DNA from: an uncultured Pseudomonadota bacterium
Lineage (GTDB): Bacteria > UBA10199 > JACPAL01 > GCA-016699445
NCBI GenBank assembly: GCA_964555055.1
Contig: CAZKQW010000012.1
Location: 4,897 to 68,896 of the forward strand
DNA: 64,000 bases
Reading direction: 5' to 3'
The notes beneath the pieces are model-generated. The model was not told the DNA's origin. It ran no database searches and saw only the letters and a program-made list of their open reading frames with translations. A program made the position numbers and the translations under genes. Shown piece by piece: positions 5,625 through 38,750 of the stretch. Each line of letters starts with the position of its first letter. Position 1 is the first letter of the stretch.

Positions 5625-5770
5625 GTCATTTTTGAAAAATAACGCGTCGCATAAAATAATCATTGACCGATTTGATGCACTGTGTAAATCTTTGACGCGT
5701 TGGGCAAAGAAAGGTTCAACACTATGGCAACTGCAAAAAAAGCAAAAATTTTGAAACAAGGAGGATTTCT

Positions 5771-6301
5771 ATGGCTACCCGACGTAAACAAGCCAAAGCA
5801 TCAAAAACAACTTCTCTCAAGCTTGAGGGCTTCACCGGTCTTCTCGGCAAGCTTGAGGTGGAAGCAGAGAAAGTTGTCCGACGCATCGTTGAAAAGGCGG
5901 AGACGAGCTCACGCGATATCAAAAAGGGTGTCCGCACTCTCATACAACAAGTCCGCAGCACGGGACTTGCTTCAATAGCCGAAGAGAAGAAACAGGATTT
6001 GGTGCGTCTTGCCGGCGAAGTCTTGACCAAAGCGAAGGAAGTCCAAATCGCATCGGTGGGTTCTTTAAACAACTTCAATCGAGATGAAATCGTCAAAGAA
6101 GCCAAGAAGAACATCGATGACATCATTAAGAAGATTAACTCTTCAGAACTGATGGCAAAAGCCAAAGTTCAAGCGCTAAATACAAAAGACCAAGTTTTGT
6201 CTATCCTAAGCATTCCCTCCCAAGAGGATGTGGTCAAGCTATCCCGCAAGATCGTCACCCTCGAAGGTCGGGTTAACAAGCTTACGCGAAAAGCCGCTTA
6301 G
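5771..6301 (+). CDS. phasin-like (PHA granule-associated) protein
   Basis: 176-aa Lys/Glu-rich coiled-coil protein ending …DVVKLSRKIVTLEGRVNKLTRKAA, as in PHA-granule-associated phasins. AAGGAGG RBS 8 nt upstream of ATG. Confidence 0.5.
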   Translation: MATRRKQAKASKTTSLKLEGFTGLLGKLEVEAEKVVRRIVEKAETSSRDIKKGVRTLIQQVRSTGLASIAEEKKQDLVRLAGEVLTKAKEVQIASVGSLNNFNRDEIVKEAKKNIDDIIKKINSSELMAKAKVQALNTKDQVLSILSIPSQEDVVKLSRKIVTLEGRVNKLTRKAA

Positions 6302-6388: not shown

Positions 6389-7075
6389 ATGCGCTTACCA
6401 ACAGCGATCGTCATTTTATCAGGAGGATTGGATTCCGCGACCGCTCTTTATCTCAGTCATTCTTCCTTCCGTATCGTCAAGACACTGACTTTTGATTACG
6501 GGCAAAGGGCCGTAGCACGTGAAATCAATGCCGCTCGAGAGATTTCATCGATACTGAGCATTCCCCATACTGTGTTTACCCTTCCTTGGGTTTCTGAAAT
6601 CACGCGGACAGCCTTAGTGAATCGCCAGAATTGTCTACCTCACCCTTCTGAATCCGACTTGAATCGACAAGATGTCGGCATGGAAAACGCGAAAAGCGTC
6701 TGGGTGCCGAATCGAAACGGCCTCTTCTTAAACATAGGCGCGACCATCGCCGAGGCGGAGGGGATCGATAGCCTGATTACGGGGTTCAACGCGGAAGAAG
6801 CAGCGACTTTTCCGGATAACAGCGAAGCTTTTTTAAAGGCTGCGAATGAATTCTTTGCCTACGCGACGCTTAAAAAAATTAAAGTCGAGAGTCCGACCCT
6901 CACCCTGACGAAGGCAGAGATTGCCTTTCGGGCTCGGGAATTGGGCATCCCATTCTCTAAACTTTGGTTTTGCTATGAAGGCGAAGCCATTCCCTGTCGG
7001 CGGTGCGAATCATGCCGCCGAAATTTTCGGGCTTTCCGACAAGTTGGGATTGCGGATCCCTTCGAATCTTCCTAA
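6389..7075 (+). CDS. queC: 7-cyano-7-deazaguanine synthase QueC
   Basis: PP-loop IVILSGGLDSAT. C-terminal Zn motif CYEGEAIPCRRCESCRR. Confidence 0.85.
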   Translation: MRLPTAIVILSGGLDSATALYLSHSSFRIVKTLTFDYGQRAVAREINAAREISSILSIPHTVFTLPWVSEITRTALVNRQNCLPHPSESDLNRQDVGMENAKSVWVPNRNGLFLNIGATIAEAEGIDSLITGFNAEEAATFPDNSEAFLKAANEFFAYATLKKIKVESPTLTLTKAEIAFRARELGIPFSKLWFCYEGEAIPCRRCESCRRNFRAFRQVGIADPFESS

Positions 7076-7084
7076 GGGCATCCG

Positions 7085-7642
7085 ATGCAGGTCAAGTGGA
7101 TCGATACACCTCTAGATTACGACGGCACACAGCTGGTCTCCCATTGGATCTTCAGGACCACGGGAGTGCTAGGCGACGGACTCGTTGCCTTCTCAGGCCG
7201 CTGCGAAGTTAGCCTGGAACATATGGTCGACTTAGTCGACGTGCGTGATAAGAAACCCATCTTCAGCCAGAATATGCTGCACTTCATCGGAGAATTTTTC
7301 GGCATCGGCTTGGAAACTACGATCCTTTATCAGCGACTACTTGTCAGTTTAGCGCAGCAGGAATTGGTGACGCGCACGAAAAAACACCATTTGGTGCGCG
7401 GCGGCAATGACCTTTACGATGAAGACTCAAAACTCTCCGTCTCGATCGCGACCGTCTCTCCCGTGTCTACCCTCGTTCATTTCGGGATCAATATCGAAAG
7501 TAAAGGAACTCCCGTTAAGACGAAAGGCCTTATGGATTACGGCGTCGATGCGGCCTCGATGGCCAAAACAATCCTTGAAAGCTTCAAGCATGAAGTCGTG
7601 AGCGCCCGCGAAGCGCGCTGCAAAGTCAGGCCGGTGCCTTAA
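7085..7642 (+). CDS. conserved hypothetical protein in queD position (possible DUF366-like), function unknown
   Basis: 185 aa. No CxxxHGH PTPS/QueD motif and no QueF motif. Its stop overlaps the queE ATG (TAATG), so it is translationally coupled inside the que operon. Confidence 0.4.
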   Translation: MQVKWIDTPLDYDGTQLVSHWIFRTTGVLGDGLVAFSGRCEVSLEHMVDLVDVRDKKPIFSQNMLHFIGEFFGIGLETTILYQRLLVSLAQQELVTRTKKHHLVRGGNDLYDEDSKLSVSIATVSPVSTLVHFGINIESKGTPVKTKGLMDYGVDAASMAKTILESFKHEVVSAREARCKVRPVP

Positions 7643-8412
7643 TGGAAAACGACGCCGCCATCATCGAAATCTTTTCCTCGTACCAAGGGGAGGGCTTACA
7701 CGTCGGGGAACGCCAGCTCTTCATACGCTTTCAAGACTGTGAACTCTCCTGCAAGTTTTGCGACACGCCTTTGACTTTCGTTCCCAATAAATTCTGTCGG
7801 TTAGAATCTCCGGCTTTCTCTAAAAAATACCAACACCTGCAAAATCCCATTTCCCAAGCGACGCTGAACAAAATCATCGGGGACTTCAACGACGAGACGA
7901 TCGTTCTAACTGGCGGAGAACCTCTGCAAAAAGTGTATTTTCTCAAGGAATGGTTGCCGCAGGTGAAACGACAGTATCCTCTCAGGAAAATCATGGTGGA
8001 AACCGCTGGCGTCCATTTCGGCGAATTCATCGAGCTCTCCGAATGGATCGACATCGTCAGCATGGATATTAAGCTCCCCTCCTCCACAGGCATGCATCCC
8101 TGGTGGCGCGAGCACGAGGCTTTCCTGAAGGCGGTCCGTCGTGCCGGAGAGCCTTCGGCCCCACCAAAGGAACTTTACATCAAGATCGTCATTTCCGGTG
8201 AAACGGAGGAAAAAGATATCGCACGCGCGACTCAACTGATCGCTTCCATGGACGCATCGATTCCCGTCATCCTCCAGCCGGCTTCCCTTTACGGTCGTTT
8301 CCGATCCATTCCCACGATCGATCAATTGGCGCGTTGGGAAGACCAGATAAAACCTGTCCTGAAAAACCTCCGCATTATTCCTCAAGTGCATAAACAAATG
8401 GGGATCCTATGA
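7642..8412 (+). CDS. queE: 7-carboxy-7-deazaguanine synthase QueE (radical SAM)
   Basis: N-terminal …GEGLHVGERQLFIRFQDCELSCKFCDT (CxxxCxxC radical-SAM cluster of QueE type). Confidence 0.8.
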   Translation: MENDAAIIEIFSSYQGEGLHVGERQLFIRFQDCELSCKFCDTPLTFVPNKFCRLESPAFSKKYQHLQNPISQATLNKIIGDFNDETIVLTGGEPLQKVYFLKEWLPQVKRQYPLRKIMVETAGVHFGEFIELSEWIDIVSMDIKLPSSTGMHPWWREHEAFLKAVRRAGEPSAPPKELYIKIVISGETEEKDIARATQLIASMDASIPVILQPASLYGRFRSIPTIDQLARWEDQIKPVLKNLRIIPQVHKQMGIL

Positions 8413-9545
8413 GGACACGTCTCGATTACGAAACATGCGAAGCGAAAATCCTCGCCCCTTACGCCATGCTTAGCGAAGCCACAGAAGGCCGTGAATATGC
8501 CGAAGAAGAACACGGGTACCGTACCGCTTTTCAAAGGGACCGAGACCGCGTGGTCCATTCCAACGCCTTTCGAAGACTCGAGTACAAGACTCAAGTCTTC
8601 GTCTACCACGAGGGGGACCACTACCGAACGCGATTGACGCATAGCTTGGAGGGATCACAAATCGCCCGCTCGATCGCGCGCATGCTGGGTTTGAATGAGG
8701 ACTTATCCGAAGCCATTATCTTAGCCCATGACTTGGGACACACACCCTTCGGGCATTCGGGCGAAGTGGTTTTGAACCGCCTCATGAAAAAATGGGGTGG
8801 CTTCGAGCATAACCGCCAGTCGCTGAGGATCGTCACCGTTTTGGAAGACCGCTATCCGGACTTTCCGGGGTTGAACCTCACTTACGAAGTGCGCGAAGGT
8901 TTGGCCAAACACCAATCCGCCTACGACAAGCCGAATGCCCAGGCGAATTTCAAGAAAAAAGGCCAACCCACTCTAGAAGCCCAGATCGTGAACATCGCCG
9001 ACGAAATCGCCTATTCCAACCACGACCTGGACGACGGTCTGCGCTCCGGTTTGATCAGCCTTAAGCAATTGAAGAACGTGCGTCTGTGGGTCGATCATTT
9101 TCAAAGACATGACGACGAAAAAATCCAAGTGAGACAAACGATCCGCTCGATTATCAACCATTTCGTCCTCGACCTCGTGGCGGAGACCGAGAAGCGATTG
9201 AAGGACGCCCGCATCCGTTCGGTCTCGGACGTCCGCGCCAGCAAGGCCAAACTCGTCTCCCTCTCGCGGGATTTCGACATGAAGAACCGTGAGCTCAAAG
9301 CCTTCCTGCGCGACTTCATGTACCGCCATCAGCACGTGGAGCGTATGGCCACTAAGACAAGAATGGTGATTGAGGGCCTCTTCAAGACTTACATCAAAAA
9401 TCCCAAGACCCTCCCGCCGGACCTCTACGAGAAGACGAAGAAGCAGCAGCTCGAACGGACCGTGTGCGATTACATCGCCGGCATGACGGACCGCTTCGCC
9501 CTGGAAGAATACAAACGCCTCTTTGATCCTTTGGAAAAGGTCTGA
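8409..9545 (+). CDS. dgt: dGTPase-like deoxyguanosinetriphosphate triphosphohydrolase (HD domain)
   Basis: HD motif HSLEGSQIARSIARMLG…AHDLGHTPFGHSGE. ATGA overlap with the queE stop. Confidence 0.8.
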   Translation: MRTRLDYETCEAKILAPYAMLSEATEGREYAEEEHGYRTAFQRDRDRVVHSNAFRRLEYKTQVFVYHEGDHYRTRLTHSLEGSQIARSIARMLGLNEDLSEAIILAHDLGHTPFGHSGEVVLNRLMKKWGGFEHNRQSLRIVTVLEDRYPDFPGLNLTYEVREGLAKHQSAYDKPNAQANFKKKGQPTLEAQIVNIADEIAYSNHDLDDGLRSGLISLKQLKNVRLWVDHFQRHDDEKIQVRQTIRSIINHFVLDLVAETEKRLKDARIRSVSDVRASKAKLVSLSRDFDMKNRELKAFLRDFMYRHQHVERMATKTRMVIEGLFKTYIKNPKTLPPDLYEKTKKQQLERTVCDYIAGMTDRFALEEYKRLFDPLEKV

Positions 9546-9560
9546 TATAAGCGGAGGTTC

Positions 9561-11483
9561 ATGGCCTCCAATCCCATTTTCGAAAAGAACCTCGCCGCCC
9601 TCAAAAAACACCACCCCGATCTGGCCCGACGGATCGCGGAACTCCCGGACGTACCCGCCGTCATCGTCAAAAAAACGGAAGCAGGAGAGTGGAACATCGC
9701 TTGTCAGTTCGCGGACGGAAGCTCGAAATGGTTCTATCCCGATCCCTCACCTGGAAATTATTCCGTTCACTTTTTGTCCCAAGAAAAATTCGAAAACCCC
9801 CGTCTCCTCGTTTTCTTAGGCCTGGGACTGGGCCTTCATCTTTTGGAATACTTAAAAAAGCCGCACCCTTTGAACCAAGCGATGATCGTCTTCGAGAATC
9901 AAATCCATTTCTTCAAGAAAGCTTTGGAGACCTCCGACTTTTCGGAAGCCTTCGCGGCACCGCGGGTATTTTGGGTAGTCGGAAACGACCTCGAGACAGC
10001 ACGCCTCTTTCTGAACGCTTTTTATTCAAACGGACCATGGCTCATGCTTGCGGACGCCATCGAATACGTGAATTTCCCGCCGAGTTGCCAAACCAATCCG
10101 AGCTACTACCTCGCCATCCAGGATTTGATCCCCAAAGCGATCGCCCATCATTTCAACCGCGTCTTCAGCGATCCCTACGACGCCTATCGGGGAGCGGAAA
10201 ACTTCTTCAAGAACCTCCCCCTTATTTTTCGGATGCCTTCTTTCGAAAAGGCCCGCGGCTTCTTGAAGGGAAAACCAGCGGTCTTAATCGCTTCGGGACC
10301 GTCCCTGACGGAATCGCTCCCGATCCTCCGCGAGATCCAGGACCGCGTTCCGATGATCGCGTGCCCTTCGGCACTTTCTCTCTTGATCCAAAATGGCATC
10401 CATCCCCATCTCTGGCTGAACATCGAGCGTGACGAGAACGTCGGCGACCTTTTCCGGGATCTTCCCGAGAAACCGGATCATGTCTTCGTCGGGCCTCCGT
10501 TAGTCCATCCGAAATGCTTCGCGACGAACCAAGGGTATAACGCCTACCTTTTAAGCCAAGGGCTTTTCGCCCACTGGTTGCCTTTCCTGGGGAAACCGAT
10601 CGACTTCGGCCATTCGGCGGCGAACGCCGCTTTCCGCATCTTGGAAGTCCTGGGATGCTCGGATATTTATTTAGTGGGCCAGGACTTGAGTTACGCCAGG
10701 AATCAAGAGAGTCATGTACCTGGAGCTTGGGAGGAAACGAAGCGCTTCTCGGAAAACCTCCAGAAGGAAAACCGGCAGACTTTGAGCGTCGAAGGGAACG
10801 ACGGCCGGCCCATCCTCACTAATCTCTACTGGCACACCTACCTCAAGAATTTCACGGAACAACTGATTCCGTCCTTTCCGGGCCAGGTCCATAACGTCAT
10901 CCCTTCGGGTTATGGAGCGAAGATCGCGGGCACGGTACGGCTCGATCCCGCAGAGCTTTTGATGCGATTTGAGAAAAGAGAAACGGATTTTTTGGCGTCC
11001 TTAAAGGCCGTCTTGAAGCCACCATCACCCGAAGAAACGCTAAAAACCTCCGAACTCTTCTCGGAAAAAATCGGGACGGCCCTCGAATGCCTAAAGGAAG
11101 TCATCGCCGAAAACCGGAAATTCTCCCTGAAGTGCAAGGAACTCACGTTCATGCCAGCCTTCATGAACCGAAAACCGGAAGAAGCCCTGCCCCTTTGGAA
11201 ACGCTTCTTGGACGACTTCTCGGTTTTTTGTAACCGCTACTACGTCGCCAACCACCCGCGTCCCGATATCCAGGAAACCTACCGGCACTTCTTCCACTCC
11301 ATCGTCCAAGGCTTGATCGTGAAGAACCAGATCGAGTTCTTCGGGAGCGCCAAAGACCTGTCAGGGGATTTCGGCGAGATCAACCGCAAGCTCGACCTCA
11401 TCTTCAACCTGCTCAAGGACGAATCCTATTGGGCCGAGATGATGGTCGAGCTTTTATCAAGCAATGGCTCTAAGGAATTCTAG
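9561..11483 (+). CDS. DUF115 / motility-accessory-factor (Maf) / MptE-like family protein
   Basis: 640 aa. Central block …AVLIASGPSLTE…IACPSALSLL…YLVGQDLSYA resembling 6-hydroxymethylpterin diphosphokinase MptE-like/Maf proteins. 15 nt after dgt. Confidence 0.45.
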   Translation: MASNPIFEKNLAALKKHHPDLARRIAELPDVPAVIVKKTEAGEWNIACQFADGSSKWFYPDPSPGNYSVHFLSQEKFENPRLLVFLGLGLGLHLLEYLKKPHPLNQAMIVFENQIHFFKKALETSDFSEAFAAPRVFWVVGNDLETARLFLNAFYSNGPWLMLADAIEYVNFPPSCQTNPSYYLAIQDLIPKAIAHHFNRVFSDPYDAYRGAENFFKNLPLIFRMPSFEKARGFLKGKPAVLIASGPSLTESLPILREIQDRVPMIACPSALSLLIQNGIHPHLWLNIERDENVGDLFRDLPEKPDHVFVGPPLVHPKCFATNQGYNAYLLSQGLFAHWLPFLGKPIDFGHSAANAAFRILEVLGCSDIYLVGQDLSYARNQESHVPGAWEETKRFSENLQKENRQTLSVEGNDGRPILTNLYWHTYLKNFTEQLIPSFPGQVHNVIPSGYGAKIAGTVRLDPAELLMRFEKRETDFLASLKAVLKPPSPEETLKTSELFSEKIGTALECLKEVIAENRKFSLKCKELTFMPAFMNRKPEEALPLWKRFLDDFSVFCNRYYVANHPRPDIQETYRHFFHSIVQGLIVKNQIEFFGSAKDLSGDFGEINRKLDLIFNLLKDESYWAEMMVELLSSNGSKEF

Positions 11484-11494
11484 AGACTAACCCC

Positions 11495-11977
11495 TCAGCG
11501 AAAGCGGGGCGACTCTCTGTATATTTTTACAGCTAAACAGCCGTTTCGAAGGTGATAAACATCTTGGGTCATACCATAAGTTTTATACAGATCCTCCACA
11601 TCTTCAACTAAATCTAAAAGCAACTTCTCGTCATCAACATGACCGGTATTAATATGCTTTAAGTCAGCTTTTAAATATTCTACCCTCACGGAATAGATGA
11701 GATTTGCCTTGTGAACCTGAAACATATTCGGTTCGCGCCTGGCCGCAAGCATTTCTGATCCGAATTGGGACTCTATATCCTTGATGAATTTGGTACGGTC
11801 ATCCTTTGAAACTCGTAAATCAACGCTTCTATGAATACTAACAGCCGCTTCTATTATAGTATGCATGTCTTCTAAGCGGTCAGCACATCTCGAAATGCTT
11901 ACGCTCGCGCCTGGGCTCAAGCTCATTGTGTTTATATTTCTTACCAATTCTCTTAACTCTATCGCCCTGGGAGTCAA
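11495..11977 (-). pseudogene. 3' portion of an AT-rich gene put out of frame from its ATG by an 11-nt homopolymer (phase-OFF state); full gene 11495..12234
   Basis: ORF-track ORF begins at a TTG. The same frame is open up to TAG at 12160-12158 and passes through the G-run. GGGAGG(12246-12241)+ATG(12234-12232) lies in the other frame. Frames verified codon by codon. Confidence 0.6.
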
Positions 11978-12133
11978 CCGATTGGAGTTTTCTTGATTGA
12001 TTTCCTTGAATATTCTATCGACTTCGCATGCAAGGGCGTAGGCCCCTTCGACAGATACGCCAAAACGCCCCGCAGAGAGCCGTTCGAAATTACCTAACAG
12101 TTTTTGGTATTCTTTCCTTTGAATGTTGCATGT

Positions 12134-12144
12134 CCCCCCCCCCC
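12134..12144. repeat. poly-C (poly-G on coding strand) homopolymer, 11 nt
   Basis: tgtCCCCCCCCCCCagaag. Encodes a Gly run in both reading frames of the interrupted gene. Confidence 0.95.
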
Positions 12145-12396
12145 AGAAGCACCGGGACTAGTCGTTTCAGGAACTCTTCCAGTCGGATAGAGTGTACTGA
12201 CAGGACTTAAAACGGAATTTGCAGTCATTATCATAACAAACCTCCCTAGATGATTTTCAACTGTCCCTCTGAACCATTCAAAGGGAGTTGAGGGAATTAT
12301 CGACGGGGTTTCTTGAGAGTTGCGGGCCCTTTATATCTTTCGTGATTTTCTGTTTTCTATATAGAAAACACTTATGGTGGGAGAACCGTGAAGGAC

Positions 12397-14199
12397 TTAT
12401 TCGTAGATCGTTCGGTAAGCTTTCCAGTTGGCGTAGATCTTACGCACATAGTCGCGCGTTTCGCCGTAGGGGATCTCTTCGATGAACTCTTCCTCCGGCC
12501 AGCCGTGCCTTTGCTTCATCCATTGGGACACGACGGCCTCACCCGCATTATAGGAGGCTGTGGCGGCATACCACTTGCCGTCGAAGAGAGCGTCCAACTT
12601 CTTCAGGTAAAAGATCGAAAGCTCGATGTTGGTCAGCGGGTCCTTCAGCCAAGAAGGGGCAAAGGCTCTCCATCCGGCTTCTTTCGACAACTTACGCCCG
12701 GTATAGGGCATGATTTGCAATAAACCGATGGCTCCCACGGGTGACACGACGGCGGTGCGGAAACGGCTCTCCTGCCTCATGATCGCGTACACCAAATAGG
12801 GATCGATGAAGTCCTGACGGCGTTTCACCTCGGAGAAGAGGAAATCCGCGTATGGCATTCGGTATTCGACGTCCTGTCTCGGAACGCGAAAATGAAATTG
12901 ATATCGGTCTCCCTTCTTAATGAAGCGATGGGGATCGTTCGGCAACGGCAACCCATCCCACATCGCATCCCCGCTATGCTGGCGTGCGAGACGGATTTCC
13001 ACTTCTGCGTCGGACATCAGCCCTAAAGAAGATAGGGTGTGGATGCGCTCAAGATCGTCCGTAGCGGGAAATTCCTTGGCTTCCTCTTCCCAGCTCAATC
13101 CCAAGGGCGTCCACCATTGCCTATAATCAGTGCGTATGCCAAGACGGTCGAGGCGTTCGGCGGCACGCACGGCGTAGTATGTGGCCGGGTAGAGACTGAG
13201 GATGGACTGATAGATTTCACGCGGATTTTCGACATCCTTCCGATATTTTTCGATCGACCGGGCTTTCCAATAGAGAAACTGCGACGTCTCCCCGTAGTGG
13301 ATCGCTTGCTCATAACTATCGATGGCCTCCCTGTAATGACCCAATCTGTATTGGGCCCATGCGATTTTACCCCAATACTCTCGCCGGTCCGGATTGCCCT
13401 TGGCCTTTCTCAAAAGCTGCCTCAAAGCAGAGATCGCGTTTTCATAATCCCCGGCGTCTTGATGGAGAAAAGCGATCTTCTTCAAAGCTTCGTGGGCCTC
13501 GGGAGATTTCGGGTAACGCAACATCATCAAACGGTTGGCTTCAATCGCCGTCTCGAAATCTTGGCTACGGGCGGCAGACTGCGACAGACGGACCAGGAGT
13601 TGGACGCTGGACTTGGGACGCGAGCCTTTCTTTCTTTGCTTACGCGAGGATCTTTCCTTCGCGAAACGCTCAGAGACCTTCCCGGGCAAAACCAGTTTCT
13701 TATAAATATCCTTGGCGTCGGCATATCGCTTCGAATCAAAAAAACAATCCGCGGCGGCCTCCGGCGAAGGCGACTTGGCGCAATCGTACTTCTCGTATAC
13801 CGGTTCCGGGATTTCTAAGGGTGGGCATTCTTCATGGGAACGGGAAATATGTTCGGCGATTTCGTACCAACGGCTGTCGGGGTACTTGGCGGCAAGCTCG
13901 GAAAAAGCGGCTTTGGCGTCGAGACACTTTCCCTGGCTCCATAAGGCCTGAGCATAATCGAAAAGAACGTAATCTTGAATGGCGGTTGAAGCTTCCCGGA
14001 GTTCCGCGAATTTCTTGGCCGCTTCTTCGAATTTATTTTCCTGCAAGAGCTTATGCCCAGATAGGTAGTATTTTTTTAATTGGGAGATTTCATTTCCCCA
14101 TGAGGAAATCGCGTGGAGAAAAAACACCGACAAAAAAACCCATCGTCTCATAAAAAAATCCTCATAGGTCTTCCAAGTTTTGGGATCCACAAAAAACAA
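12397..14199 (-). CDS. slt: soluble lytic murein transglycosylase (Slt70-like, TPR-like superhelix + SLT domain)
   Basis: Catalytic region …YAIMRQESRFRTAVVSPVGAIGLLQIMPYTG…SYNAGEAVVSQW. 600 aa with N-terminal signal/TM. Confidence 0.8.
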   Translation of the reverse strand: MFFVDPKTWKTYEDFFMRRWVFLSVFFLHAISSWGNEISQLKKYYLSGHKLLQENKFEEAAKKFAELREASTAIQDYVLFDYAQALWSQGKCLDAKAAFSELAAKYPDSRWYEIAEHISRSHEECPPLEIPEPVYEKYDCAKSPSPEAAADCFFDSKRYADAKDIYKKLVLPGKVSERFAKERSSRKQRKKGSRPKSSVQLLVRLSQSAARSQDFETAIEANRLMMLRYPKSPEAHEALKKIAFLHQDAGDYENAISALRQLLRKAKGNPDRREYWGKIAWAQYRLGHYREAIDSYEQAIHYGETSQFLYWKARSIEKYRKDVENPREIYQSILSLYPATYYAVRAAERLDRLGIRTDYRQWWTPLGLSWEEEAKEFPATDDLERIHTLSSLGLMSDAEVEIRLARQHSGDAMWDGLPLPNDPHRFIKKGDRYQFHFRVPRQDVEYRMPYADFLFSEVKRRQDFIDPYLVYAIMRQESRFRTAVVSPVGAIGLLQIMPYTGRKLSKEAGWRAFAPSWLKDPLTNIELSIFYLKKLDALFDGKWYAATASYNAGEAVVSQWMKQRHGWPEEEFIEEIPYGETRDYVRKIYANWKAYRTIYE

Positions 14200-14259
14200 C
14201 GAGGGCGATGAACCTTGAAAAGTTCATCGCCCTCGGCGAAGCCGTATTGTCGATGACGC

Positions 14260-15102
14260 TTAAGGCGTCGTGCAAGCCACCGTGGTGGTGGTTCCACCCA
14301 CGAAGTTACCGCTGACGACGGGCACCGGAGCCGTGCTTTGGTAAGCTAAATTTCCTCCGACGTCGTTATTGGTCAGGCTACCCGCGGCTCGATTGCAGAG
14401 AAACGACATGTCCCCGGCCGCGGTATTCCCGTTGATGGTGCTCCGGATGGAATTCTTTTCGAATAAGAAGGTCCCATTCACCCGGTTCGTGTCGATATTG
14501 AAGTTGATTTGAGGCCCACGGCAAGCCCCCGTAGCGGCCATATCGGCGACCCGCATGTCCCCACCGATGAAGCTATTAATAACCTCGACTACCGGAGGTG
14601 TCGTCGTATTGTTATACTTGGCTCGGATGGAGTTGATTACCAAATCCCCTCCGATGTCGGAGGTATCGATGCTCAAGCAGTTAACGATCGGCTTTTGGGT
14701 TGTGCTGGGCGTCGCCGGGCCTATCAAAACATCCCCACCAAAATAAGTTCTTTCGAAGACAAGACATCCCGTACCATACGAGCAGGTGGACACCGTCGGA
14801 GCCAAAGTCTGGAAGCTCCCCAACACTAAAGTATCCAGCAAGTTGATGCTGGCGAAGCCTTGAGTATTGAGGTTTTGATCCATGATGGCGGACTGAGCAT
14901 TCAAAACGCCATTGGAGTTCACGGTCACATCGCCTACGACCTCGGTGCCGTTCAGAGTGCACGTGCGCTTTGCGGGCACGATGAGATTCCCCGGAACCGT
15001 CACGGCTCCGAGAGTGCCCGTACAAACCGTGTCAGCCCACGCCGACTGAGTGATACCTATCGCACAGATCAAGACCGCTAATGCAGTTTTGACTCGCATC
15101 AT
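14260..15102 (-). CDS. secreted beta-helix-like repeat protein downstream of pilQ
   Basis: Signal peptide MMRVKTALAVLICAIGITQSAWA. Repeated (F/I/V)GGD motifs (FGGDVLIG, IGGDLVIN, IGGDMRVA, VGGNLAYQ). Gly/Asn/Thr-rich. AAGGAGG RBS. Confidence 0.5.
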   Translation of the reverse strand: MMRVKTALAVLICAIGITQSAWADTVCTGTLGAVTVPGNLIVPAKRTCTLNGTEVVGDVTVNSNGVLNAQSAIMDQNLNTQGFASINLLDTLVLGSFQTLAPTVSTCSYGTGCLVFERTYFGGDVLIGPATPSTTQKPIVNCLSIDTSDIGGDLVINSIRAKYNNTTTPPVVEVINSFIGGDMRVADMAATGACRGPQINFNIDTNRVNGTFLFEKNSIRSTINGNTAAGDMSFLCNRAAGSLTNNDVGGNLAYQSTAPVPVVSGNFVGGTTTTVACTTP

Positions 15103-21313: not shown

Positions 21314-22444
21314 TTATTGAAGATCCCAAGAAGCTAAGCTAATGGTCAAAGGCCCCGTAGGCAGTCCCCCGGGAGTGTACCCTACCATTCCCGTCATATA
21401 GCTGGCATCGAAAGTCAGGCTCAGATCTTCCGTCGAATTCATGATGATGTTTCCGTTAAAATCCCCCCCGGCGACCAAAGCTCCCCGGACGCGATAATGA
21501 TCCGAATTTCCGAAGTCGAGATTCCCCTCCGTCCAGGCATAACCTTCGACGATCATGCCATCGGAGCCGACAATGCTTAAATTTCCCTTCGAAGCGATGG
21601 CGGGCATCATTTGGGAAGGATTCGAGGTGTTGGCTCTTATGGAGAGGCCCGTATTATGATCGGCCCTAAAATTACTCTCCGAAAAGATGCTTCCATTGAT
21701 GGTCACGTTATTCCCCATGATGGTCACGTTGCCCGTCGCGTATAAAAGCCCCGTGTAAGTCACGTTATCCCGAATCACAACAGTCCCCGTCACGCAACGG
21801 TTCCCCGTATAGTTCGCGTTGATAATGAGATTGCCAACGTAAGTCGACGAACACATGGCTTTGTAAACGTTAAAGTCGAGCTGAGGCATGGTCATCGTGG
21901 GACTCGAGCTTATAGTGCCGTTCACAGTGACGTCGCTATCAATGTTGGCATTTCCAGTGATCGCGATGTTTCCATTGATCACTCCCGTCGAACTATTGGA
22001 ATTAAAATTTCCCCCAGCCATCACGGCAAACTCATTGGGACTACTGGCGCGCGTCACGTTTTGGCTAATCACCTTAACCGCATTGCCCACCCGCGCCGTC
22101 ACGCGCACCGTCATCGATGAGGCGGTTTTATTTAGATATTCAGCCCAAAACTGACCGGAGCCTAAGGTCACGGGAGTTCCGCCATATGGGACTCCGGTTG
22201 GGGAAACGTTATCGGAAAAATTCATATCGTTGTTCAGCTGGCTCATTTGAATATATTGCAGGCCGCCGTCGGCCACGTACAAAGCTTGTGAAGCTTGAGA
22301 TTCGTCAATGGCACCCGCTGTCGTGGTCGCCGTCATGTAGTTCATGGAGGAGGCCATGGCACTGAAGAAGAGCATGGCGAGCAACGTCCCGATGAAGATC
22401 ATCCCGTCTTGTTTTTTTAATTTTTTATGGATCGTCTTCATCAT
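21314..22444 (-). CDS. PilX-N-domain minor pilin with large beta-helix-like C-terminal region
   Basis: KKQDGMIFIGTLLAMLFFSAMASS (PilX_N-like), then NGNIAITGNANIDSDVTVNGTISS repeats. 376 aa. Confidence 0.6.
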   Translation of the reverse strand: MMKTIHKKLKKQDGMIFIGTLLAMLFFSAMASSMNYMTATTTAGAIDESQASQALYVADGGLQYIQMSQLNNDMNFSDNVSPTGVPYGGTPVTLGSGQFWAEYLNKTASSMTVRVTARVGNAVKVISQNVTRASSPNEFAVMAGGNFNSNSSTGVINGNIAITGNANIDSDVTVNGTISSSPTMTMPQLDFNVYKAMCSSTYVGNLIINANYTGNRCVTGTVVIRDNVTYTGLLYATGNVTIMGNNVTINGSIFSESNFRADHNTGLSIRANTSNPSQMMPAIASKGNLSIVGSDGMIVEGYAWTEGNLDFGNSDHYRVRGALVAGGDFNGNIIMNSTEDLSLTFDASYMTGMVGYTPGGLPTGPLTISLASWDLQ

Positions 22445-36991: not shown

Positions 36992-37066
36992 GGTGGGCTT
37001 AGCTCAGCTGGTTAGAGCGCCAGGTTGTGGCCCTGGAGGCCGAGGGTTCGAATCCCTTAGCCCACC
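36992..37066 (+). tRNA. tRNA-His: tRNA-His(GTG) with encoded G-1
   Basis: G(-1)GTGGGCT acceptor pairing AGCCCAC plus discriminator C. Anticodon loop TTGTGGC. T-arm GAGGGTTCGAATCCCTT. Confidence 0.8.
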
Positions 37067-38750
37067 CAATTGCGCATTGGCGCGAACCTAATGCAGAACC
37101 CATATTCATTCGTCCTCTAAGCTCTAGGGAGCCCTGGAGCTTAGAGACGATGATGGGTTCGGTTAGGATGTGCTTTAAAGTCGTATTGTCTCGTGTTTCC
37201 GAGATTTCCTTCAGTATCTCCGTCAAACGATCCTTGATGAGATAAGGCGTGACTAAAAGCTTTTGGTCATCCGTATTGCCTATCGTCAAAAGTTCCTGTT
37301 CCAGCTTCATTTTACGGGATTCTCGCTCCCGTAAGGCCTGAGAAATGGATTCAATATCGCCGGAAGTGCCATCCGTAATAAAACGAATCAAATTACTGAT
37401 TTCTCTAGAGATTCTATTAAGCTCCGTTTCGACGTCTTTTTTACGATTAGGAGCATTCCTCAAATAGTCTTTGATGCTTTGATTGTATTGATCCGCGGCA
37501 TATTGAATGGCCTGAGGGTTGGAAATAATGTGTTCATTGATATAATCGATAATTTCCTTTTCGACGACATCCTTTCGGATCAGAAACTTTTGATTACAGG
37601 TGGCATGACGATGGGCTTCGATACAGCCGTAATAACCGCCATGTCGGCCCGTCACGAGGGAACAGGCACTTCCGCAAACGGCACAGGACAGAATGCCGCT
37701 TAAAAGCCCTACATTATCGATCCGGAACTGCTTACCAAAGACCCTTTGCTTCCGTGTCTTGGCGACCTTTCTTCGACACTCTTCGTTTTCCTGAATGCGT
37801 TTCTGGACTTGATCCCAGAGATCCTGAGAAATGATCCTCAGGTCATCTCTTTGGGTCACGATCCAATCGCTTCGAGGCCGAGCTTTTGGGATTTTCCTAC
37901 CCGTATCGGGATCTATCGAATAAACCCTTTTATTGTAAGTCCACTTCCCAATATAGTTTTCATACCTCAAAATCCTTTCCAAAGGCCCAACTTTCCAGCC
38001 CCGGGAATAGGATTTGGGAGGTGGCACTCCCTTCTCATTGAGATATTTTGCAACATACACCCGGCCATGACCTGAGGCGTACAGCTCATAAATCTCTCTC
38101 ACTATCGCTGCTTGTGCCGGATCAATGATGATCTTGAAATGGGAAGAGACCTCTTTCCCTTTACGCTTCTCCTTCTGCGTCGCGACTGACGTATATCCGT
38201 AAGGCCTTTGCCCCGTTGAAAACTCGCTCCTGGCCCTAGCCTCCAATCCCCGACGAGTCCGTTCGGCATGAGCTTCATTGCCGAAATCGGCGACCATTCC
38301 CTTGACCGTAAAAAACGTCTTTGAATTGGGATCCGCCGAAGAAAGCCTATCGGAAATGGACACGAGCTCGACGTCGTAATGGCGAAGGAGTTGGTACAGC
38401 TCGAGGAGGTTACCCAAGGAACGGGTCAACCTCGAAAGATCGTCCACGATAAGAAGATCGAAAGCCTGCCGTCGGATTCCATTCAGAATGGCTTGATAAC
38501 CTCGCCGGCCTGCGATCTTCCCGGTAATGGCCTCATCCTTTTGGACCCACTCTGGTAGAATTTGGATCGGAGATCCCGCGTAGAGCCGAGTGGCTATCTG
38601 GTCTTTTTGGGCCAAATGGTTGATGCGGTCGATTTGATCATTGGCCGACGTCGGAGACTGCATCTCGCTGCTGTAGCGAGCGTATACCGCGGCTCGAACA
38701 GCCGGCTTTAGAGAGGCTGAGGCTTCTTCGGAGGACATACGGGATCCCAT
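36999..38750 (-). mobile_element. large serine recombinase (resolvase + recombinase + Zn-ribbon domains); 3' end overlaps tRNA-His
   Basis: Catalytic Ser region AAVYARYSSEMQ. Recombinase domain. Zn ribbon CAVCGSACSLVTGRHGGYYGCIEAHRHATC. Last ~23 codons are antisense to tRNA-His. Confidence 0.8.

Follow-up and report, generated by a model that had tools for sequence, protein, structure and literature searches.

A candidate poly-G phase-variable orphan gene in a lineage-specific slot beside a Maf-family gene of an uncultured bacterium

Introduction

Does a long G tract that interrupts a short reading frame beside a Maf-family gene act as a reversible ON/OFF switch for an otherwise intact gene, or is it the mark of a recently inactivated gene, a miscounted homopolymer or an incidental feature lying between two unrelated frames? 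To our knowledge, almost all documented cases of simple-sequence-repeat phase variation come from host-adapted pathogens. In Campylobacter jejuni, poly-G/C translational phase-variable genes include maf1, with a tract of G(7-13), cj1295 and cj0045c, and a run of at least 7 G/C inside a reading frame has been used as a working criterion for homopolymer phase variation (PMC6321876). A preliminary description of the DNA studied here had proposed that an 11-nt tract holds a contingency gene in the OFF state and that slipped-strand mispairing could turn it back on. Here, we report a computational analysis of this locus within the window, i.e., the whole 64-kb stretch of DNA that was analysed, which leaves the slipped-strand reading plausible yet unproven.

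Results and discussion

On the minus strand, read 5' to 3', the locus consists of a Shine-Dalgarno (SD) sequence, GGGAGG (12246-12241), a 6-nt spacer, an ATG (12234-12232), 30 codons and a run of 11 G's (12144-12134). The features of the locus are as follows.

11484 to 12396, no strand: slot between the convergent Maf gene and slt, with no homology to the slot of the relative
11495 to 11977, minus strand: mechanically listed ORF of 160 aa from TTG 11977, all alpha-helical; given by NCBI as 143 aa from ATG 11926
11978 to 12133, minus strand: 52 codons 3' of the tract, with predicted helices H40-54 and H62-81 and a coding score similar to that of the annotated part
12094 to 12096, minus strand: TAG terminating the 46-aa product of the 11-G state, from frame translation
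12134 to 12144, minus strand: homopolymer G11 (C11 on the plus strand), the frameshift point, in frame at 12 or 9 G and out of frame at 10 or 11 G
12145 to 12234, minus strand: 5' arm, the ATG and 30 codons, MIMTANSVLSPVSTLYPTGRVPETTSPGAS, predicted to be disordered and rich in Ser, Thr and Pro
12158 to 12160, minus strand: TAG bounding the downstream frame just 5' of the tract, from frame translation
12241 to 12246, minus strand: SD sequence GGGAGG, 6 nt 5' of ATG 12234
12351 to 12370, no strand: perfect 20-nt palindrome TGTTTTCTAT/ATAGAAAACA, 26 nt past the stop codon of slt and 116 nt 5' of the ATG
Product stretch ...SPGASGGGGTCNIQR...: peptides spanning this stretch would be the mark of an expressed product

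Past the tract, the frame opened by ATG 12234 reads GGGG-HATFKGKNTKNC and ends at TAG 12096-12094, giving a product of 46 aa with codon 47 as the stop. The frame of the 160-aa ORF stays open in the 5' direction through the tract up to TAG 12160-12158. This stop closes it a short way 5' of the G run, and TTG 11977 is therefore the first start codon that this frame offers. When the length of the tract was varied in silico, 12 G yielded 246 aa and 9 G yielded 245 aa, while 10 G and 11 G yielded truncated products of 47 and 46 aa, respectively. A change in tract length therefore toggles the locus between a full-length ORF and premature termination, the in silico behavior expected of a translational switch, and the tract occupies codons 31-34 of the 246-codon fused ORF, a 5'-proximal position inside the reading frame. 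These results agree with the preliminary description, which had placed the ATG, the SD sequence, the 11-nt tract and TAG 12096-12094 at the same coordinates and in the same frames, had read the 160-aa ORF as open from TAG 12160-12158 through the G run, and had held that 12 or 9 repeat units fuse the two parts into a protein of ~245 aa, so that the sequenced length of 11 is OFF.

The palindrome upstream of the start is unique in the window, where 0.03 occurrences would be expected if up to 3 mismatches are allowed, and the relative described below lacks it. It had been reported as 18 nt long (12352-12369) and ~115 nt 5' of the ATG; the element is real, but its length is in fact 20 nt. The accompanying suggestion that it forms the slt terminator had to be abandoned, as the stem is AT-rich, no T run follows it and the terminator scan missed it, while a role as an operator is possible. 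No sigma-70 promoter on the minus strand reached the scan threshold, and there was no match to Rfam in the region 11000-13000.

The tract is a statistical outlier within the window. It is the sole homopolymer of at least 9 nt in the 64 kb, in which the G/C runs comprise eight 6-mers, one 7-mer and this 11-mer. For runs of at least 11 G/C, an iid model predicts 0.027 occurrences in 64 kb and an order-3 Markov model ~0.007; one was observed, indicating that the tract exceeds chance expectation. In frame, it encodes Gly4 as four consecutive GGG codons; GGG makes up 22% of the glycine codons in the window, and the probability of a Gly4 coded purely by GGG is ~0.002. The six other glycine runs in the window (at least 3 residues) use GGG for 1 of their 20 codons, and the ordinary genes of the window avoid such GGG runs. 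The glycines encoded by the tract sit in a low-complexity linker, ...TTSPGASGGGGTC..., that should be able to tolerate either Gly3 or Gly4. At 11 nt and inside an ORF, the tract lies above the cut-off of at least 7 G/C used in PMC6321876. No further long G/C tract is present in the 64 kb, and so nothing there points to phase variation of additional genes.

The product of the fused frame is an orphan, without known relatives in the collections searched. The fused protein was used as a query in a word-indexed search of 5.8 billion clusters, where it matched its own 143-aa NCBI annotation (P0001) alone, and in an exhaustive HMMER search over 1.84 billion representatives, which returned the protein itself and one marginal, repeat-inflated match (E = 2.5e-4) to the TPR_10 region of a STAND NTPase (P0004), made up of three stretches at approximately residues 90-180 of the fused protein. 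No homologue was found among viral (IMG/VR), GTDB genome or JGI metagenome contigs, no significant match in Pfam, NCBIfam, PHROGs, PADLOC or PDB sequences, and no paralogue by tblastn against the window and the collected loci. Both the fused protein and the 46-aa product were absent from the protein collection, and exact-sequence look-up returned no record for the 143-aa and 46-aa products. The orphan was also considered as a Maf/MptE-like (PF01973) protein and rejected, there being no Pfam or NCBIfam match; Maf is the neighbor at 9561-11483 alone.

Structure prediction for the ~245-aa fused product, a check that had been named in advance, gave a partial answer. The single-sequence AlphaFold2 model contains a disordered segment without secondary structure (residues 1-39) and eight helices that start right after the glycine run, but it is of low confidence (pLDDT 51), with higher confidence in the C-terminal 100 residues alone, and Foldseek searches of this low-confidence model against the PDB returned generic helical-repeat proteins as the top matches, none of them significant (best E = 0.06). 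No internal repeat was detectable in the fused protein, no Pfam TPR model matched the orphan, and no signal peptide was found in the predicted product by inspection. The best description, based on these predictions, is of an all-alpha protein of the cytoplasm, possibly TPR-like, whose N-terminus is disordered and rich in Ser, Thr and Pro, and our best guess at its role is that of a cytoplasmic helical-repeat adaptor or scaffold protein. There is resemblance to TPR_10/kinesin-light-chain-type repeats, such as those of P0004, in the weak similarity, the all-alpha prediction and the helical-repeat Foldseek matches; unlike such repeats, the orphan has no Pfam TPR match, no internal repeat and only non-significant fold matches.

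The gene also differs from its surroundings in composition. The GC content of the locus is 0.40-0.46 compared to 0.51-0.57 in the flanks, as expected from the earlier observation that the locus is more AT-rich than both of them. GC3 is ~0.43 in the downstream frame and 0.27 in the short upstream arm, compared to 0.62-0.68 in the adjacent Maf and slt genes and 0.44-0.76 in the long ORFs of the window. The neighbor at 9561-11483 (plus strand), previously assigned to the DUF115/Maf family, does encode a Maf protein, with MptE-like and Maf_flag10_N domains. The orphan (minus strand) and the Maf gene (plus strand) are convergent, with stop codons 11 nt apart. The link that had been drawn to the phase variation of Maf genes was not upheld: the orphan does not belong to the Maf family, it and its neighbor are convergent, and the Maf gene of the window contains no G/C run of at least 6 nt, so that the analogy with Campylobacter is one of position alone.

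A Maf-based scan recovered a sole relative, L001 (CP064976), an activated-sludge MAG of the GTDB phylum UBA10199 (SILVA bacteriap25), together with a distant locus (L002) that was uninformative. Synteny in L001 is the same as in the window and its Maf protein is 75% identical, but its Maf-slt slot holds a 179-aa rubrerythrin/ferritin-like gene (L001 11900-12439, minus strand) unrelated to the orphan, and nucleotide homology between the two breaks off precisely where the Maf and slt coding regions end. The comparison with relatives proposed in the preliminary description could therefore be made for the slot, which contains a different gene in L001, but it provided no homologue in which to compare the tract or the upstream frame. 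The lack of homology to the relative's slot, along with the foreign composition, identifies the slot as lineage-specific replacement DNA, and the rubrerythrin-like gene found there in L001 indicates that the Maf-slt slot is a hotspot for gene replacement. Judging from composition and context, the DNA in the slot was probably acquired horizontally, as had been suggested; the foreign composition and the lineage-specific slot fit this origin, but no mobility gene lies next to the slot, and no meaningful flanking repeats mark an insertion. In L001, a Nanopore-based complete MAG, the Maf gene is split into three ORFs (10001-11903) and slt into two (12509-14223), most likely as a result of uncorrected homopolymer frameshift errors, for which reason L001 is unusable for judging real frameshifts.

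An orphan whose composition is foreign, whose slot is occupied differently in the relative, and which shows no family, fold or other functional sign in the searches, might be a recent pseudogene, i.e., a horizontally acquired gene that a single indel at its most mutable position has inactivated and that is now decaying, with tract lengths of 10 and 11 drifting non-adaptively. Both of the lengths observed, described below, are OFF, as this explanation would have it. However, both arms are otherwise intact (30 and 212 stop-free codons), implying that any inactivation is either very recent or reversible, and neither the all-GGG Gly4 nor the outlying length of the tract would be expected in an ordinary gene. 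Moreover, a G11 tract would revert at high frequency anyway, making a 'dead' gene mechanistically indistinguishable from one that is OFF. On balance, we consider a pseudogene unlikely.

Evidence on the length of the tract came from run DRR685533, for which a literature search found nothing. The Logan assembly of this run breaks exactly at the tract. Contig 338186 (6,309 bp, Maf side) ends ...GCATGT-C10-AGAAGCACC, while contig 64991 (19,095 bp, slt side) ends ...GGTGCTTCT-G11-ACATGCAACAT; the length of 10 is labeled L003/L005 and the length of 11 is labeled L004. The two contigs meet at the tract, overlap by ~30 nt and differ there by one base, with the other flanking sequence identical or near-identical, and each stops 9-11 nt beyond the G run. 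The tract in the NCBI contig is 11 nt long. Since the Logan contigs of this region are 6-19 kb in length, chance would rarely place a contig end so close to the tract, by our estimate roughly 30 nt in 10 kb. Compared with the window, the Maf-side contig carries four clustered SNPs, at 7309, 7725, 7728 and 7944 (L005 1466, 1882, 1885 and 2101), in the DUF366 and QueE genes, and the slt-side contig carries 0 SNPs over the 8,980 nt compared. The four SNPs imply that the reads derive from a population with at least two closely related haplotypes rather than from a clone. Both 10 and 11 exist among the reads, and the length of the tract is non-uniform. Of the tract lengths that the preliminary description had proposed to look for, 10 and 11 were seen in assemblies of one read set, but both are OFF, neither ON length (9 or 12) was seen, and n-1 stutter fits the data equally well.

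Three further observations concern these contigs and the means of counting such runs. The index lists another contig carrying both flanking genes. The ends of Logan contigs 255161 and 338186 lie ~75 nt from each other in the intergenic region that follows recJ (window 5768-5844), a break that could stem from a repeat, low coverage or strain variation. Lastly, the only other G/C run of at least 7 nt in the window, a C7 at 21463-21469 near the 3' end of a 376-aa ORF with no Pfam family (21314-22444, minus strand), offers an internal control for stutter.

The difference between 10 and 11 may be technical, as stutter at repeats consists mostly of n-1 deletions and grows with repeat length and the number of PCR cycles (PMC11878640). 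If so, the true tract might be 12 (or 9) nt long and the gene intact, with 10 and 11 arising by deletion-biased stutter during library PCR, cluster amplification or base-calling. That two assemblies of one run give different lengths, that both Logan contigs end 9-11 nt past the tract, and that the source is a mixed metagenome of modest coverage assembled into contigs of 6-19 kb are all consistent with such a miscount. In de Bruijn graph assembly, variant paths that dead-end just past a homopolymer fit low coverage or a loss of read quality. On the other hand, a length of 11 was obtained independently in the NCBI contig and in one Logan contig, whereas 12 should be the majority class if it were the true length, and the window contains no other frameshifted gene, indicating that the assembly is generally accurate. 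A miscount, like a pseudogene, appears unlikely.

Several lines of evidence indicate that the sequences on either side of the tract belong to one gene. An SD match of at least 5 nt precedes 20 of the 39 reference genes in the window, and one of at least 6 nt precedes 11 of the 39; ATG 12234, with the 6-mer GGAGGT at a spacing of 5, is among the better matches, while neither of the internal starts, TTG 11977 and ATG 11926, has an SD sequence in the same scan. In a codon-usage log-odds analysis trained on the long ORFs of the window, the proposed frame ranked top of the three in every segment, and the 156 nt that separate the tract from TTG 11977 scored 0.18, compared to 0.14 for the annotated 143-aa part. 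The 60 open codons from 12157 to 11978 (tract included) contain no ATG, GTG or TTG, and a stretch of this length would be stop-free with p ~0.03 given the local composition; a stop-free frame of 220 codons arose in 0 of 20,000 shuffles. Additionally, two helices in the AlphaFold2 model (H40-54 and H62-81) fall upstream of the annotated start. These four independent lines, i.e., the SD sequence, coding statistics, the start-less open stretch and predicted structure, along with the all-GGG glycines, agree in supporting a single ancestral ORF of ~246 aa interrupted at the 5'-proximal G11 tract, and the public annotation of a 143-aa hypothetical protein probably truncates this 246-codon gene.

The same data make it very unlikely that the locus consists of two unrelated ORFs, one of 143 or 160 aa translated from its own internal start and the other, of 46 aa, either spurious or a separate peptide, with the tract incidental to both. 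NCBI does call the 143-aa ORF, and AlphaFold2 confidence is raised in the C-terminal 100 residues alone, but the internal starts lack the SD sequence seen in about half of the genes in the window, the 60 start-less open codons score like the annotated part, and a strong SD sequence and an ATG are placed exactly where a single frameshift at the tract joins the downstream frame. Recoding, whereby some full-length product would be made from the 11-G template through a -1 ribosomal frameshift or through RNA polymerase slipping on the tract, is more improbable still. Judging from the sequence, moving back by one base on G GGG GGG (a -1 shift) would bring the ribosome into frame, with perfect tRNA re-pairing possible, and long homopolymers are known sites of transcriptional slippage. 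However, the documented cases of such slippage are mainly at A/T runs, Rfam gave no match, and there are no homologues to show a conserved out-of-frame arrangement. A programmed -1 frameshift site would combine a slippery heptamer with a stable stimulatory structure 5-9 nt further on; the G run could slip, but the RNA 3' of the tract forms no stimulatory structure (the first 17 nt are unpaired) and is no more structured than shuffles (z = 0.26).

Based on the data presented above, the locus is best, if tentatively, explained as a slipped-strand, translational simple-sequence-repeat switch in an orphan gene, sampled from a population that is mainly OFF. In this model, a single lineage-specific, probably horizontally acquired gene of 246 codons would be translated from ATG 12234 behind a strong SD sequence, with the pure G run at codons 31-34 forming a short glycine linker between the disordered N-terminus and an all-alpha, possibly TPR-like body. 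Slipped-strand mispairing during replication would add G's to, or remove them from, the G11 tract, with 9 or 12 G giving the full-length frame and 10 or 11 G a truncation of 46-47 aa, and expression would thereby be stochastic, heritable and reversible. The model supposes that the differences in length arise in vivo, that switching reaches the ON state and that selection keeps the switch. Since a G11 tract is intrinsically hypermutable, some reversible switching is to be expected if the tract is real; given that there are no homologues, there is no evidence of selection maintaining either the tract or the gene. Two further findings weigh against a switch: the predicted product has none of the surface, glycosylation or restriction-modification hints typical of contingency genes, and the dead-ends of the Logan contigs 9-11 nt past the tract also fit poor read quality or low coverage. 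As for the broader claim of a phase-variable contingency gene, the tract does lie within the ORF and its length does toggle the frame, but the lack of an ON length and of homologues tempers it, and we regard it as somewhat doubtful that this is a contingency locus of an uncultured, free-living environmental lineage in which a selected poly-G tract places an orphan under stochastic ON/OFF control.

The locus functionally resembles the contingency genes with poly-G tracts known from Campylobacter, Helicobacter and Neisseria, and it is a candidate member of the known class of poly-G phase-variable genes. As in the C. jejuni genes, a G/C homopolymer of at least 7 nt lies in the 5' part of the ORF and its length toggles between full-length and truncated products; the tract, at 11 nt, is of a length also reported among those genes, and the orphan adjoins a Maf-family gene. 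In contrast with C. jejuni, a host-adapted epsilonproteobacterium, the host here is an uncultured environmental bacterium related to the candidate phylum UBA10199, the product, a helical orphan, gives no hint of a surface or glycan-modifying role, the Maf gene has no tract, and no ON allele, switching rate or other tracts are documented. The locus also shares features with the homopolymer frameshift pseudogenes and assembly errors of draft genomes and MAGs, namely a lone frameshift at a long homopolymer over which assemblies disagree, but it differs from these in that the window is otherwise free of frameshifts, two assemblers agree on 11, and the tract is an extreme outlier encoded by a run of the disfavored GGG codon. 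If the switch is real, simple-sequence-repeat phase variation would occur in an uncultured environmental phylum and on a taxonomically restricted gene, extending homopolymer phase variation beyond host-adapted pathogens. Because the mechanism itself is textbook, the significance of this would be modest. Disagreement between independent assemblies of one run, and contig breaks at a homopolymer, can also flag candidate hypermutable loci.

The wider gene order of the window begins with SecDF, RecJ, a QueC-DUF366-QueE-dGTPase set, Maf (plus strand) and the orphan (minus strand), and continues with slt, a 280-aa secreted ORF without a family and an MSHA-type pilus cluster (secretin, PilO/N/M, TPR, AAA, T2SSF and MshE); beyond tRNA-His lies a serine-recombinase island with RND pumps, a P-type ATPase and a multicopper oxidase. 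The first of these sets, comprising QueC, DUF366, QueE (radical SAM) and a dGTPase-like HD protein (6389-9545, plus strand), is a 7-deazaguanine pathway cluster that lies directly 5' of Maf and is kept in L001. The 280-aa ORF (14260-15102, minus strand) has a signal-peptide-like N-terminus, a strong SD sequence (AAGGAGG) and no Pfam or NCBIfam family. It separates slt from the pilus secretin gene and is missing from L001, where the secretin gene directly succeeds slt, making it a second lineage-specific insert within 3 kb of the orphan slot. Further along, the gene of a large serine recombinase (36999-38750, minus strand) overlaps tRNA-His (36993-37067, plus strand). Two AcrB-type RND pumps, a heavy-metal P-type ATPase and a multicopper oxidase come after it, and GC3 is lower here, at 0.46-0.57; this region (36993-62000) is probably a metal-resistance island integrated at tRNA-His.
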